From: a virus
Lineage: Duplodnaviria > Heunggongvirae > Uroviricota > Caudoviricetes
Direction: 5' to 3' (one strand)
IMG/VR virus record: IMGVR_UViG_2563366917_000002
DNA length: 23,950 nucleotides
Shown: in pieces, positions 4,993 to 16,615 of the stretch
Layout: every line of letters begins with the position of its first letter
How positions within the stretch are numbered: position 1 is the stretch's first letter
Translations under genes and position numbers: made by a program
Notes under the pieces: model-generated
Database searches by the model: none
The model's input: the letters and a program-made list of their open reading frames with translations, nothing else
Told to the model about the DNA's origin: nothing

Positions 4993-5125
4993 TTTTTGGG
5001 ACTCCTGGCTGATTAAGTATGTCGATAAGGCGTTTCCATCCGTCACGTAATTTACGGGTGATTCGTTCAAGTAAAGATTCGGAAGGGCAGCCAGCAACAG
5101 GCCACCCTGCAATGGCATATTGCAT
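4961..5125 (-). CDS. cIII: cIII, FtsH protease inhibitor
   Basis: Hand translation from the ATG at 5125 gives [54 protein letters not shown] (54 aa), overlapping kil as in lambda. Below the 60-aa cutoff, so absent from the ORF track. Confidence 0.8.
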   Translation of the reverse strand: MQYAIAGWPVAGCPSESLLERITRKLRDGWKRLIDILNQPGVPKNGSNNYGYPD

Positions 5126-5197
5126 GGTGTGCTCCTTATTTATACATAACGAAAAACGCCTCGAGTGAAGCGTAATTGGTATGCGGTAACGCCGCGC

Positions 5198-6162: not shown

Positions 6163-6744
6163 ATGAACAACTCATGGTGGCAGGAACTAATGCATTTTTT
6201 CCTGCAAGGAATGACACTTAAACAGTTGATTCATATGCTAATCATCCTGATCATATTGATTATTGTTATGCCGGTAAGCGTAAAAGAATGGATAAACCTG
6301 CATAATCCAGAAATCCTTCCTCATTACTGGATGTATTACATCCTGTTGTTTTGCGTTAGCTATGTGCTTAACGGCGTTGTTAATTCCGCTTATCACGCTG
6401 TGACTGAAAGAATTGAGGTATTCGCTGCTCAGAAGCGCAAATCTAAAGAAGAAAAATATGTGCAAGATTTGTTTGATTCGTTAACTCTTGGAGAAAGAGC
6501 GTATTTGGCATTCGCTGTAGCCGCTAATAACCAGCTACAAACGGAAAAGGGCGCTCATGAATCAATTTCATTGCTCAAAAAAGGACTCCTCGTTCGAAGG
6601 CCTCCTGCTGTTGGATATCCTGATACCGACCGTTTCGTTATCCCTGAAAGCTATAGACATGAGTGCTACATTAGGTTTGCCGGGAAGGCAGACAGCCTTA
6701 TGGATGAACTTATCGCTCAGGATAAGCATGGCAAAAACAAGTAA
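6163..6744 (+). CDS. sieB: SieB superinfection exclusion protein (membrane)
   Basis: 193-aa ORF on the opposite strand between ral and N, as in lambda. Hydrophobic N-terminal half (LIHMLIILIILIIVMPV...). Matches lambda SieB as recalled. Confidence 0.85.
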   Translation: MNNSWWQELMHFFLQGMTLKQLIHMLIILIILIIVMPVSVKEWINLHNPEILPHYWMYYILLFCVSYVLNGVVNSAYHAVTERIEVFAAQKRKSKEEKYVQDLFDSLTLGERAYLAFAVAANNQLQTEKGAHESISLLKKGLLVRRPPAVGYPDTDRFVIPESYRHECYIRFAGKADSLMDELIAQDKHGKNK

Positions 6745-6760
6745 TTAGCAAATGAATTTA

Positions 6761-7033
6761 TCATCTCGCCGTCAGTTGTTTTGATTTCCGGTAGCCTGCC
6801 GCGTAAAGAGCTACGTTCGGAAGACAAGTTGAACCTTCATATTTTCTGGTCAACGTTGTCAGAGTTATCACTTCTGCTCTCATTGCTGGTTTGAGCTTGC
6901 ATTGCAAGACCACTCGTGAAGGGGTTGGCCTGTGTAGCTTGTCGGAGCTGATCGCCTCCTGACTTTGCAGATTTGCGCGACGAGCTCTACGGCGAGAAGC
7001 TGCGGTGCCTTTAAATTCTGTTTTTCTGGACAT
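6761..7033 (-). CDS. N: N-type transcription antiterminator, P22 gene-24-like
   Basis: Arginine-rich motif near the N-terminus (GTAASRRRARRA) and C-terminus ...VALYAAGYRKSKQLTAR resembling the P22 N homologue. Start chosen at the internal ATG 7033, which has a GGGAGG Shine-Dalgarno; the track ORF extends to 7105. Confidence 0.7.
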   Translation of the reverse strand: MSRKTEFKGTAASRRRARRANLQSQEAISSDKLHRPTPSRVVLQCKLKPAMRAEVITLTTLTRKYEGSTCLPNVALYAAGYRKSKQLTAR

Positions 7034-7131
7034 GGATTCCTCCCGAATAAACTTTGGCGATGCAATCTCGAAGCTCCTCCTGAGACGGTTGCTTCGGCAT
7101 TGCATCCCACAGCTTATGTGGTTGGGTGATC

Positions 7132-7199: not shown

Positions 7200-7300
7200 T
7201 CCAGCGTCCTGCTGACGGTTAAATAGTACGATATGTACTTTACAAGATCAATACAATTTGTTGTAAGTTGGCGTGGTTTTTTATAACGCTTTGTATTTAA
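7200..7300 (-). promoter_or_regulatory. pL / OL region (leftward early promoter and operators)
   Basis: Intergenic AT-rich region upstream of N containing palindromes AGTACGATATGTACT (7225-7239) and TACAATTTGTTGTA (7252-7265). Exact promoter hexamers not resolved. Confidence 0.4.
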
Positions 7301-7469
7301 TAGTGTTGTTTTTTAGCGTGGATGTATTGCCTCGGCGATGTAAGGAGAGATCAGAATTGCGTGGTTTAGTGGGTTGCATCTATTTATTTTTCAATAAATA
7401 TAATTGGTTATGTGTTTTTAGGTGGGCGAACGTGAGGCAAAGAAAACCCGGCGCTGAGGCCGGGTTGTA

Positions 7470-8222
7470 TTATGCTGCAAGTCTCTTAACCCAAGTCTCT
7501 CTTTTGGAGAATGGTAGAACTTGGCTTGATTCATGGAAGAGTAAGGAGAGTTGTTGCATTTGATCACCAATTGCTTCGCTGTCTATAACAACAAATCTGT
7601 TGTTATACTCCTCACTTGAAGCTTTAAGATCAATTAGTTTCCCAAGCAATGAGTAAGCACTATTCCAGCTTCCTCCGTGTTTCACGCTTGATGTAAAAAC
7701 GTATTTAGGTATGTCGGTTTTTATTGTTACAGGGACGGTAATTTGATGTCCACTCAAGCCATATACGTTTTCACGAAGAGAAAGTGCGTCTCTAAGCTCT
7801 GTGTGATATAGATAATCAATAACCATACTTTCAAACTTTTCAGCTTGAACTGGCTGATACCAGTCTAACGACAAAGTTGATGCGAGTATACCAGCTCTAA
7901 TTATGTTCGATGTAATCGCACCGACATCCTTTTCTGTTGCCCAAGCAATGATTTCTCCTCGAGCATTGAGTTCTGCGCCTTCTTTAAGCAGTAATTGTCG
8001 TATCTCATCAAGTCGTTTTTTGGTAAGCGAGATCCCTCTTGCCTCCATATTCATTAAGGCATCGCATCTGTCACTAACTAAATACCTACCATTGACTTCA
8101 CGGATAAAGGCACCGACATGCTCTCCATCATCACAGTAAGTGAATGGACTGATAATTCTCAAGGTCTTGCCTATTGGATGGCATTCGAAACCTAGTTGTG
8201 AGATCACTGTTGAGCACATCAT
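7470..8222 (-). CDS. unknown protein, gene 2 of a two-gene module at the rexAB-equivalent locus
   Basis: 250-aa ORF. Its ATG overlaps the upstream gene's stop (ATGA). By eye the DNA is AT-richer than flanking phage genes. No Walker A, HEPN or obvious nuclease motif recognised. Confidence 0.6.
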   Translation of the reverse strand: MMCSTVISQLGFECHPIGKTLRIISPFTYCDDGEHVGAFIREVNGRYLVSDRCDALMNMEARGISLTKKRLDEIRQLLLKEGAELNARGEIIAWATEKDVGAITSNIIRAGILASTLSLDWYQPVQAEKFESMVIDYLYHTELRDALSLRENVYGLSGHQITVPVTIKTDIPKYVFTSSVKHGGSWNSAYSLLGKLIDLKASSEEYNNRFVVIDSEAIGDQMQQLSLLFHESSQVLPFSKRETWVKRLAA

Positions 8223-8776
8223 ATTCCAAACCCCATTTGCCCCGACTCATCTTCAAGCGGTAAAGGTATTCTCCCAGAGTAAGTTATGTTCAGATGTTTA
8301 CAGAAGTAATTCCAATACCCTACCAGGTCATCTGGGTTTATGTCATCTTCGATTGGAAACGCTATTCTATCACTATAGTATCCAGCTTCTTCATAGTATA
8401 CATGGTAGTGAGCACCGTAAATGATATCTTGGTACTTCGGATGATCGACCTTGTAACTATTCGTGTGTTTGTCAAAGTGATAGGTATCTACCGCGAAAAC
8501 CCTCTTGTTATGATAGAAAGCAATAATATTTATTTTAGGGTAAGAAATCGGGTCATCAGGTTCTGAATCCTGATCTGGTTTCCATTTCAGTTCAAACTTT
8601 AGCCCTTGTATAGGTATACAATCCTCATCCAAGGGGATGATATGGGCTTGTAGCCACATATCAGAGCGACTTGGTTTCTGTTTCCATTTAACGCCAGAAA
8701 AGTTAACTATTTTTTTACAATAAAGTACTTTATCAACTTCTACTTGGCTTGGCTGATAATCATCTATTTTTGCCAA
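8219..8776 (-). CDS. unknown protein, gene 1 of a two-gene module at the rexAB-equivalent locus
   Basis: 185-aa ORF beginning 39 nt after the cI stop. The first in-frame start is TTG at 8776, with a GGCGG-like Shine-Dalgarno upstream; the frame is closed upstream by TAA. Rich in Tyr/His/Asp; no recognised family. Confidence 0.55.
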   Translation of the reverse strand: MAKIDDYQPSQVEVDKVLYCKKIVNFSGVKWKQKPSRSDMWLQAHIIPLDEDCIPIQGLKFELKWKPDQDSEPDDPISYPKINIIAFYHNKRVFAVDTYHFDKHTNSYKVDHPKYQDIIYGAHYHVYYEEAGYYSDRIAFPIEDDINPDDLVGYWNYFCKHLNITYSGRIPLPLEDESGQMGFGI

Positions 8777-8815
8777 TGTTTACCGCCCTGTAAATTGTAG
8801 ATAAAAGTGGTTTCA

Positions 8816-9475
8816 TCACCCAAACGTCTCTTCAGGCCATTGGCTGGCGATAACTTTCCCCACAACGGAACAACTCTCATTGCATGGGATCATTGGGTAT
8901 TGTGGGTTTAGTGGCTGTAGAAACACCTGACCGCTATCCCTGATCAGTTTCTTGAAGGTAAATTCATCACCACCAAGTCTGGCTATGCAGAAATCGCCGG
9001 GCTCAACAGCTTGCTCAGGGTCAACCAGAATTAACATCCCGTCAGGAAAGCTGGGTTTGGAACCTGTTGGTGCGGTCATTGAGTTACCTTCAACCTCAAG
9101 CCAGAATGCAGAGTCACTGGCTTTTTTGGTTGTGCTTACCAATCTCTCCGCATCGCCTTTGGTAAAGGTTCTGAGTTCTGGAGAGAACATCCCAGCCTGA
9201 ACATGAGAAAAAACAGGGTACTCATATTGTTTTTTAACTGGGGCCGATGAGTATTCGCCAACAGGTGAAAATGTCCCGTCGTGGTTGAATGATATGTTAT
9301 CAATACCAAGGTATTTAAACACCACACCAATATCACTAAGAGATGGATGACGAGATCCGCGCAACCAGTGTCCAATCCCACCCTGCGTCATACCTAGCTC
9401 TTCGGCTAACTTCTCTTGAGTTATGCCGAGCTCTTTCATTCTGGATCTAGCCAGTTCATACCATTTCATTTTCAT
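8816..9475 (-). CDS. cI: cI repressor: lambda-identical C-terminal dimerisation/autocleavage domain with a non-lambda N-terminal HTH domain
   Basis: From ...[50 protein letters not shown]... to the end it matches lambda cI (S24 peptidase-like domain). The N-terminal ~90 aa ([44 protein letters not shown]...) is a different HTH. Start taken at 9475/9469; the track ORF extends to 9517. Confidence 0.9.
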
Positions 9476-9586
9476 GTCCTTATTATTACGCTCTGTACTG
9501 GAACCATCCATGCACAATGTGTATTTTTACTTGTATTCGCAAAGTACATATTGTATTTTTTTATTCGTGTTTACTATGGAGGGCAT
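9476..9586. promoter_or_regulatory. OR / pRM / pR region between divergent cI and cro
   Basis: 111-bp AT-rich intergenic region with GTAC/TGTA-containing partial palindromes (e.g. AGTACATATTGTAT at 9543-9556) resembling the OL palindrome at 7225-7239. Confidence 0.55.
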
Positions 9587-9858: not shown

Positions 9859-9943
9859 GTTCCAAGATATCTGACCAACTAAGGCCATATGCGTTTCCAC
9901 GCATACCTTTCAACTAACTATTCACTATTGGAAATCTTAAGAA

Positions 9944-10240
9944 ATGGAAAGAACAAGTTACAGCAAACTATCACAGCGTGACGTTGATCGCGCAGAAACA
10001 GATTTACTTATCAATCTGTCAGCTATTACCCAGCGCGGTCTGGCAAAGATGATTGGCTGTCATGAATCGAAGATAAGCAGAACGGACTGGAGATTTATTG
10101 CTTCGGTCTTGTGTGCTTTCGGAATGGCATCAGACATCAGTCCGATTAGCAGGGCTTTTAAGTATGCGCTTGATGGACTCACCAATAAAAAACGCCCGGC
10201 GGCAACCGAGCGTTCTGAACAAATCCAGATGGAATTCTGA
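9944..10240 (+). CDS. cII: cII transcriptional activator (mosaic: divergent N-terminus, lambda-like C-terminus)
   Basis: 98-aa ORF. The C-terminus ...LTNKKRPAATERSEQIQMEF matches lambda cII as recalled; the N-terminal part differs. Confidence 0.8.
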   Translation: MERTSYSKLSQRDVDRAETDLLINLSAITQRGLAKMIGCHESKISRTDWRFIASVLCAFGMASDISPISRAFKYALDGLTNKKRPAATERSEQIQMEF

Positions 10241-10272
10241 GGTCATTACTGGATCAATCCACAGGAGTCATT

Positions 10273-15075: not shown

Positions 15076-16158
15076 TTAGAACTGATAAACCAGACCTACA
15101 GCGACGATGTCGTCGGTATCAATACCAGCTGTTTTGGTAAACTTACTATCGTCAATTAAGTTGATTTTGTAATCAACAAAAGTGGACATGTTTTTATTAA
15201 AGTAGTAAGTAGCACCGACATCGACATACTTGACTAAGTCTCGGTCACCATGAACACCAAGGTCTTTACCTTTTGACTGAAGGTAAGCAACAGATGGACG
15301 CAGACCGAAGTCAAACTGATATTGTGCTACTGCTTCAAAGTTTTGTGCTTTGTTTGCAATATGGTTATTACCAAAAACGGTCATATTCTGAGTTTCAGAA
15401 TATGTGGTAGCCAGATAGATATTGTTCGCATCATATTTCAGGCCTGCAGCCCATACTTCCGCATTTTTGCCGGAGGCATTGAATTTGCTCTTACCATAGG
15501 CGACCTGACCGTCAGTGCGATCTGATTTAGCATAGGTTGCACCCACGCCGAATCCTTCATACTCATAAGTAGTGGAGAAACCGAAACCATCACCATTGGC
15601 TTCAGTTACGTCAGTGCGGTCATTTTTACCCTGATACTGAGCAGCAAAGTTCAGGCCATCGACCAGACCAAAGAAGTCGTTGTTACGATAAGTTGCAACA
15701 CCAGTAGTGCGACCAGTCATGAACACATCTGTTTGGGTCCAGGTATCACCACCGAATTCTGGCAGAACGTCAGTCCACGCACCGATGTCGTATGCTACAC
15801 CGTAGTTACGGCCGTAATCGATTGAGCCGTAATCACCAAATTTCAGGCCTGCAAATGCAAGACGGGTTTTGTCTTTGGAAGAACCTTGAGATTCAGCACG
15901 GTTGCCTTTGAATTCATATTCCCACTGACCGAAACCAGTCAGTTGATCGTTGATTTGGGTTTCACCTTTGAAGCCAAGACGGGCATAAGTAGTATCACCA
16001 TCATCTGCATCATTAGAGGAGAAGTAGTGCTTGGCATTAACTTTCCCGTATAGATCCAGCTTGTTACTGTCTTTATTATAAATTTCAGCTGCCTGAGCAG
16101 ACATCGCCATCAGTACTGATGCAGCTACAGCAGAAATTGCCACTGTTAATTTTTTCAT
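15076..16158 (-). CDS. nmpC: outer-membrane general porin, NmpC/OmpD (Lc) family, phage-borne moron
   Basis: 360 aa from [23 protein letters not shown] (signal peptide) with the porin C-terminus ...VAVGLVYQF. Same position and orientation as nmpC in DLP12. Appears intact. Confidence 0.9.
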
Positions 16159-16587
16159 TGTACGCCCTTTTTTTGAACTATTATTAAAAAATGATGTCAC
16201 TGCGCGATAAATATTCATCTAATCAATGTGATTATTTCAAGATGTAAGTTTTAGTTTCTCATTTAATTTGTGAAGTAGATCTCTATTTTTATCTGAACCT
16301 TTTCTATCTAATCCTATTCATGGCTCTTGTCTGAACAAAAATAAATCTATTAGCTAATTTATATTAATGGCACTTATTTATAAGTGCTCTATAATTCTTT
16401 AGCTTAATTTAAACAAACTAAAAATAACATTGGAAATTATTAACTGGTTATTTGTTGAAGTTTTCTTATGCATTTGTGGTGGTGTTTTGAACACTCGGTG
16501 GCATTCTCACAAATATCATTTAGTAGTTTACGTACGTAAAAAATTGGTTATGCTGTTAAGAGTGGTTACTTCGTCACACAGCTTAAA

Positions 16588-16615
16588 CCCGCCGTCGAGC
16601 GGGTTTTTCCATTTT
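16588..16615 (+). terminator. intrinsic terminator just upstream of the lysis cassette (candidate tR')
   Basis: aaacccgc-cgtcga-gcgggttt hairpin followed by TTCCATTTTTT, about 130 nt upstream of the holin start. Confidence 0.45.

Follow-up and report, generated by a model that had tools for sequence, protein, structure and literature searches.

A two-gene cassette placed behind prophage repressors is a candidate anti-phage module

Two overlapping genes, here called A and B, fill the slot between the repressor gene cI and the antitermination gene N in a lambda-like Escherichia coli prophage, represented by a 23,950-nucleotide (nt) stretch of DNA from a virus of the Caudoviricetes (IMG/VR record IMGVR_UViG_2563366917_000002; this whole stretch is the window in what follows). 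The pair is a real and well-supported candidate defence module that is already listed in catalogues and whose function we infer. On balance we favour the view that it is a lysogen-expressed, two-protein anti-phage module of the exclusion or abortive-infection type, a swappable unit at the end of the repressor operon and, with similar reserve, a functional analogue of lambda RexAB and BstA that is unrelated to either by descent. The cI–N interval is a documented mosaic hotspot, which holds RexAB in lambda and BstA in BTP1 (PMC8585504). A first-pass annotation, made by a model from the letters of the window, had singled out the pair as an uncharacterised AT-rich module in the position of rexAB, and the analysis reported here follows up that proposal.

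Results

We collected 95 loci with a homologue of B from viral contigs and genome look-ups, and no other evidence is as strong as theirs. At every one of the 95, B is immediately preceded by a homologue of A whose stop codon overlaps the B start, so the co-occurrence in other genomes that a two-gene module leads one to expect is found throughout. Of the 52 distinct sequences, 38 have the ATGA form of the overlap and the remaining 14 a longer one of 13 nt. Clustered at 70% identity, the nearest upstream neighbours on the same strand form 31 clusters; Peptidase_S24 is present in 26 of them and HTH_3 also in 26, with other helix-turn-helix domains in others. Two clusters are clearly not repressors (a DUF3024 gene and a small hydrophobic open reading frame (ORF)), and there a cI-like repressor gene lies one gene further upstream. 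At the loci collected, from Enterobacterales to Pseudomonas phages, the pair always stands behind a prophage repressor. All 51 distinct loci have a terminator-like hairpin no more than 150 nt past the stop of B, and a terminator separates A from the upstream gene in just six of the 51. The order A then B is obligate and translationally coupled, and its placement behind many unrelated repressors is strict. The intervening genes of the two exceptional groups encode a DUF3024 protein of 113 amino acids (aa; locus L052, 5052–5393) and a 114-aa hydrophobic product (L012/L013, 5010–5354), which indicates that the slot can stack cargo.

The window itself has the same layout. An ORF check places both genes on the minus strand where the first-pass annotation had put them (Table 1), and the coupled ORFs and the gap after cI that it described are borne out: the ATGA at 8219–8222 is the stop of A overlapping the start of B, and 39 nt lie between the cI stop codon (TGA, 8816–8818) and the TTG start of A (8776). 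A Shine–Dalgarno-like GGGCGG element stands 6 nt 5' of this TTG, and the spacer (8777..8815) contains no terminator-like site. The intrinsic terminator, which begins 3 nt past the stop of B, corresponds to lambda tIMM and is part of a backbone common to phages with other cargo. An OL-type operator at about 7225–7243 puts pL/OL between the cassette and N, and the position between the cI stop and the terminator is indeed that of rexAB. Since a terminator follows B but rarely precedes A, the expectation that the genes are expressed in the lysogen looks sound as far as sequence signals go. The operon would read pRM, cI, A, B, terminator, with cI probably its first gene, and we infer that pRM drives the pair in lysogens, where it acts against incoming phages. 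A local promoter was considered and rejected: the single match (8794–8766) agrees at nine of 12 positions, and matches to the consensus occur at chance frequency. The repressor gene is called cI in PV340572, and the start annotated in PhiR57_1 gives a protein of 231 aa (window 8816–9511).

Both genes are under purifying selection. Synonymous sites are saturated, nonsynonymous divergence (dN) is 0.1–0.5, and the ratio to synonymous divergence (dN/dS) is about 0.05–0.2 for A and B where dS is computable. Gene A diverges approximately 1.5–2 times faster than B; the identities of the two track each other, which indicates that they are inherited as a unit. Gene A starts with GTG in 42, TTG in eight and ATG in one of the 52 distinct sequences (the start of one is unplaceable), and a short GGA lies about 10 nt 5' of the start. 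The TTG start proposed for the window, which agrees with an N-terminal MAK conserved across homologues, is thus a family-wide feature and points to deliberately weak translation of A. Low GC content, a non-ATG first start and several GenBank records in which the genes are not annotated might suggest chance or decaying frames in an AT-rich spacer. Against this, homologues remain full length across identities of 100% to about 25%, dN is far under the saturated dS, the AlphaFold models of both proteins are confident (predicted local distance difference test (pLDDT) 84–86), and copies at least 99% identical occur in 241 complete Escherichia coli genomes. These tests refute the idea, to which we attach a negligible probability.

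The pair is also a mobile two-gene unit under selection that is interchangeable with other cargo. Its DNA had been judged AT-rich by eye, and windowed GC bears this out: the cassette has a GC content of 0.395 against a window median of 0.463, within the lowest 0.2% of 1,347-nt windows (percentile 0.002), and GC at third codon positions is 0.36 in A and 0.34 in B versus 0.45 in cI. Horizontal acquisition, suggested on the same grounds, is supported by phages with near-identical cI, in which homology to the window ends precisely at the cI stop codon and at the terminator. Phage 2B8 is 97% identical to the window in cI and 94% identical on the pL/N side, and the blastn breakpoints fall at window positions 7467 and 8815 (2B8) and 7466 and 8813 (HK542), which defines the exchanged unit as 7468–8814. 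The slot of 2B8 (L003, 2676–3533) holds a 285-aa NYN-domain protein (Pfam NYN, E 6.8e-9) with weak PADLOC NYN and HEC-09 matches, and that of HK542 (L002, 2631–3682) an overlapping pair of 144 and 206 aa that matches no family. These occupants are candidates for further systems in their own right.

Another pair sits behind the repressor of the NC-SV prophage of E. coli strain NC101 (NZ_CP072787; L106, 13371–15547), a DUF6932 protein of 157 aa with an overlapping hypothetical protein of 310 aa. This prophage, the subject of the svsR small RNA paper (PMC12803456), is likewise integrated at icd and was considered as the same element, but was rejected because its slot holds this other pair, so the phenotypes reported there do not bear on the A–B cassette. 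The slot pair of NC-SV is not mentioned in PMC12803456 and could contribute to the protective phenotype of that prophage.

Exclusive linkage to repressors suggests the main rival explanation, a role in regulating lysogeny. The pair would then be an accessory that tunes the repressor, induction or the lysis–lysogeny decision, or that alters host physiology for the lysogen, for instance by sensing a host signal or by acting on the repressor as ImmA proteases act on ImmR. We consider this rather unlikely, though several observations speak for it: the association with repressors is exclusive across 31 upstream-neighbour clusters and several genera, no copy of the pair was found on 72,556 plasmids, and lambda RexA itself modulates the switch (summarised in PMC12894663). 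Yet near-identical cI is accompanied by unrelated cargo in 2B8 and HK542, which implies that this repressor can do without the pair; self-cleaving S24 proteins make up most of the partner repressors; and neither protein resembles ImmA/M78 or any regulator family.

Escherichia phages ev207, ev017, PhiR57_1 and PhiR63_2 contain the region at 100% identity and an Stx1a-converting phage has it at 98.5%; in the record of the latter (LC645425) no features are annotated under the pair. At 99% identity or more the cassette is present in 241 of 5,426 complete E. coli genomes (about 4%), once in each and always on the chromosome, with carriers that include Nissle 1917 (in a prophage remnant adjoining icd), ABU 83972, the type strain ATCC 11775 and FDA Seattle 1946. 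The Nissle copy is 100% identical; there B is WP_000968518.1 ('DUF1828 domain-containing protein') and A is WP_001062368.1 ('hypothetical protein'). Homologues are confined to Enterobacterales, Aeromonas and Thorsellia, at identities of 47–84% for B and 37–71% for A, with remote loci of the same layout at about 25–35% identity in two GC-rich prophage contigs and in the Pseudomonas aeruginosa D3-like phage phPA-G. In phPA-G (VB_PaD_phPA-G, PP083311; L102, 2920–3504) an unannotated A-like gene overlaps the annotated B-like gene by 4 nt and retains the conserved MAKQK N-terminus and the HPHLH motif. One published study of a Nissle 'phage repressor' (PMC5987069) was considered as a source of data on the pair and set aside. 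The primers of Bury et al. 2018 for this gene ('pr', EcN_1294) map to window 9898–10265 (+), and the cloned fragment is cII (9944–10240) with its flanks, not cI, so the protection against lambda and stx phages described there concerns the CII homologue.

Protein B is a two-domain protein. Pfam recognizes DUF1828 at residues 26–110 (33.5 bits against a gathering cut-off of 22), and a published HHpred search on exactly this protein assigned DUF1829, of the PDDEXK clan, to residues 155–241 with 98.8% probability (PMC13092281). HMMER gave no DUF1829 match in the C-terminal half of B from the window, and sub-threshold matches (E 0.003–0.012) in Pseudomonas-type relatives only; a B profile searched by sequence against the PDB returned noise only. 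In the homologue alignment the canonical catalytic D...(D/E)xK residues are not conserved. An invariant H159, within a GxSGH loop, occupies the start of beta-2, where Asp normally sits; S157, D198 and Q224 are also invariant, position 214 is D or E, distant members have lost K173, and there is no invariant Lys. Modelled B resembles Can2/Card1 (a CRISPR ancillary nuclease) and the type II restriction endonucleases NgoMIV, PspGI and Cfr10I at sequence identities of 10–13%, but unlike them it has the catalytic D...(D/E)xK replaced and lacks a CARF domain. The earlier statement that no PD-(D/E)xK signature is present therefore holds at the level of the motif and fails at that of the fold, which in the C-terminal half is predicted to be restriction-endonuclease-like. 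Neither protein has a transmembrane segment, as had been claimed, the highest 19-residue Kyte–Doolittle means being 0.45 (A) and 1.19 (B).

Protein A is harder to place. Among 1.84 billion cluster representatives, searched exhaustively with a profile, just 32 relatives reached E ≤ 0.001, nearly all of them small stand-alone proteins of about 100–185 aa with no informative fusions. Its AlphaFold model is confident (pLDDT 85.5, predicted TM-score (pTM) 0.84) and represents an orphan fold, with no solved structural relative; an A profile matched nothing in the PDB, and the sole viral match of the model is an uncharacterised Siphoviridae protein. Residues K22, W31, R92, D97, H104, N106, G121, H123, H125, F158, P173 and Q180 are invariant or nearly so across the superfamily, and an acidic residue follows H125 by 3–4 positions (E129 in the window). 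The conserved cluster consists of R92, D97, H104, N106, G121, H123, H125 and E129, to which a C-terminal GQ tail is added. H104/N106 and H123/H125 are each spaced i, i+2 on a beta-strand, which puts both members of a pair on one side of the strand. A three-His metal site (H104, H123, H125), assisted by D97, N106 and E129, may be proposed. Metalloproteases too have a site that is rich in His and may bind metal, which favours the lysogeny-accessory role. Weak DUF6978 matches occur in seven of the 23 superfamily members. The NCBIfam scan gave no match. That no motif could be recognized in either protein, as first reported, no longer stands: B is DUF1828 plus DUF1829, and A is weakly DUF6978-like.

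Both proteins are already in defence catalogues. The PADLOC candidate system PDC-M24 has the same two-gene order and the same domain families (DUF6978-type A, DUF1828-type B). Its PDC-M24B model PDLC04540 matches B over nearly its whole length (E 4.7e-10, 37.5 bits; residues 2–249, profile 4–254 of 256) and remote B-like proteins at E 9e-9 and 3e-12, whereas the PDC-M24A model PDLC04536 matches only the C-terminal 60 residues of A, marginally (E 4.8e-4, 18 bits). Three PDC-M24A models match six, three and two of the 23 A superfamily members, and none of the Pseudomonas-type A proteins. These matches are weak, and the pair is best described as a sister clade that the PDC-M24 models barely reach. 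Table S5 of DefensePredictor (Science 2026, PMC13092281) lists WP_000968518.1 with log-odds of 5.64 and WP_001062368.1 with 4.90, in one operon, as 'Predicted novel defense gene' without homology to known defence proteins. In Table S10 the values are 5.42 for A and 6.26 for WP_000968517.1, a 250-aa DUF1828 protein of a B-type cluster; the stringent cut-off is 4, which both proteins exceed (PMC13092281). The defensive calls and the PDC-M24B match count against a lysogeny accessory. They also mean that the pair cannot be called undescribed, as the first-pass annotation had it: it is a remote relative of PDC-M24, and both exact proteins are in Tables S5 and S10.

Lambda RexAB is the nearest comparison by position: both pairs occupy the same slot on the cI strand, end at a tIMM-type terminator and are expected to share the repressor transcript in lysogens. 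RexB crosses the membrane several times and forms a channel in it, whereas A–B includes no membrane protein and is related to RexAB neither in sequence nor in fold. Descent from a diverged RexA/RexB, for which slot, strand and two-gene layout could be cited, is refuted, and we give it practically no weight: the homology that would have undone the original proposal was not found, with no RexA or RexB family appearing in Pfam or PADLOC scans even at E ≤ 1, no transmembrane segment is present in either protein, and the predicted fold of B is chaperone-like plus endonuclease-like. BstA of BTP1 and its relatives (PMC8585504) resembles the pair in being conserved behind diverse prophage repressors, whose promoter it presumably shares, but it is a single protein that works with a self-immunity DNA element, aba, and about one-fifth of its homologues lie outside prophages (PMC8585504), whereas A–B was found only behind repressors. 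No homology to BstA was detected, and the PADLOC scan returned PDC-M24 models only.

DUF1829 has been newly implicated in defence through the validated DS-6/HipAD system, in which DS-6B is a non-kinase partner predicted to bind the kinase and DNA (PMC13092281). Like A–B, HipAD has two genes, with the effector first and a DUF1829 partner second; unlike it, HipAD pairs a HipA-like kinase effector with a partner that has an N-terminal DUF3037, whereas A–B combines an orphan-fold His-cluster protein with DUF1828. Pfam finds neither a kinase nor DUF3037 in A or B. HipAD is interpreted as toxin–antitoxin-like, and by analogy the pair might be an addiction module that stabilizes the prophage or the immunity region and has no role against other phages. 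This would suit the coupled operon, the near-universal weak start codon of A and the joint divergence of the two genes as a unit, but we find it quite improbable, since no toxin–antitoxin family matches A or B in Pfam, NCBIfam or PADLOC, no small DNA-binding antitoxin is present, and 185 and 250 aa are large for a type II system. Many prophage modules of toxin–antitoxin type act in defence, so this explanation overlaps with the anti-phage module that we favour.

Table 1 Features of the cassette region, in window coordinates unless residues are given
Feature	Position	Strand	Description
Gene A	8219..8776	−	185 aa, TTG start, soluble; phrog_2017
Gene B	7470..8222	−	250 aa, ATG start; phrog_1960 (function unassigned)
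B N-terminal domain	about residues 1–120		DUF1828; predicted YbjN/type III secretion system chaperone-like fold
B C-terminal domain	about residues 128–250		DUF1829; predicted restriction-endonuclease-like alpha-beta-beta-beta-alpha-beta fold
Exchangeable cassette	7468–8814		1,347 bp, GC 0.395; bounded by loss of homology to 2B8 and HK542
cI-type prophage repressor	8816..9517	−	Pfam HTH_3 E 2.1e-10, Peptidase_S24 E 1.3e-28
cI–A spacer	8777..8815	−	39 nt; Shine–Dalgarno-like GGGCGG at 8788–8783
Intrinsic terminator	7435..7466	−	8-bp stem with 6 GC pairs, then T-tract; hairpin 7466–7445
OL-type operator	about 7225–7243	−	AAAGTACATATCGTA; matches OR operator at 9539–9555
N antitermination gene	6761..7105	−	Pfam N_peptide E 9.7e-33; distal limit of the cI–N slot

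Other features of the window lie outside the cassette. Just past N, on the opposite strand (6163–6744, +), is a homologue of the superinfection-exclusion gene SieB (Pfam SieB, E 2.5e-22; phrog_1301), a second lysogen-protective gene in this neighbourhood. The sole Rfam family found in the window is Lambda_thermo, the cIII thermoregulator, at 5080–5138 (−), with 88.5 bits against a gathering score of 50. An OmpC/NmpC-type porin gene encoding 380 aa (15076–16218, −) lies on the opposite strand between a Q-like antiterminator ORF and the lysis genes. It is a classic lambdoid moron, with ompC at the same place in the NC-SV prophage of NC101, and its upstream region (16000–16600, GC 0.30–0.32) is the most AT-rich part of the window.

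Discussion

How an anti-phage module of this kind might work can be sketched from the predicted domains. Protein A would be a metal-dependent effector enzyme, with its three-His site on adjacent beta-strands, kept scarce by a GTG or TTG start codon. Protein B would be its partner, restraining A and sensing infection in an arrangement resembling toxin and antitoxin: the chaperone-like DUF1828 domain may bind A or a phage protein, and, as in the model for DS-6B of HipAD, the catalytically non-canonical DUF1829 domain may bind nucleic acid. A product of the superinfecting phage would then free the effector, and A and B, if transcribed from the repressor promoter, would no longer be newly made once the prophage itself is induced. 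The assignment of A as effector and B as restraining sensor is tentative, and the reverse, with B an unconventional nuclease and A its regulator, is about equally possible. Similarly tentative is the bolder proposal that the module is mechanistically new, with A founding an orphan-fold family of three-His metal-dependent effectors that a DUF1828/DUF1829 sensor holds in check. The obligatory link of the module to the repressor operon would then belong to the mechanism and stop new synthesis on induction, and the targets of the module might be superinfecting temperate phages rather than the lytic phages of standard screens.

Several observations weigh against a defensive role and temper our preference for it. 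PDC-M24 is a candidate system without experimental support, to which the pair is matched weakly, and the DUF6978 match in A is below threshold (22 bits against 29.6) and covers residues 104–164 only. The absence of canonical PD-(D/E)xK residues from B means that no effector chemistry is established. Neither accession nor 'DUF1828' appears among the transcription units selected for the DefensePredictor screen (its complete Table S6), and Tables S7 and S8 do not contain them either, so the pair was predicted but not screened; overall validation in that study was 45%, falling at lower log-odds (PMC13092281). Its model also reads neighbouring genes and is thus not independent of the argument from position. 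The literature covered, which leaves out Brenes & Laub 2025 (where the PhiR phages were described), contains no experiment on the A–B pair; it has no functional mention of DUF1828, DUF6978 or PDC-M24, and the protein accessions do not appear in the main texts. Most defence systems occur in several kinds of mobile element. The A–B pair was encountered behind repressors alone, with no copy among 72,556 plasmids, a distribution that would fit a function in lysogeny just as well.

If the pair does defend, it would add an uncharacterised system that is present in about 4% of complete E. coli genomes, including that of the probiotic Nissle 1917, and in an Stx1a phage. It would also provide a first function for DUF1828 and for DUF6978-like proteins, and it would place DUF1829 in a second defence setting. 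One module tied to dozens of unrelated repressors offers a clean system in which to ask why prophage defences sit in the immunity operon, and it suits equally the question of how such defences spare their own phage. In practical terms the finding bears on the engineering of phage resistance and on the phage susceptibility of Nissle-based therapeutics.

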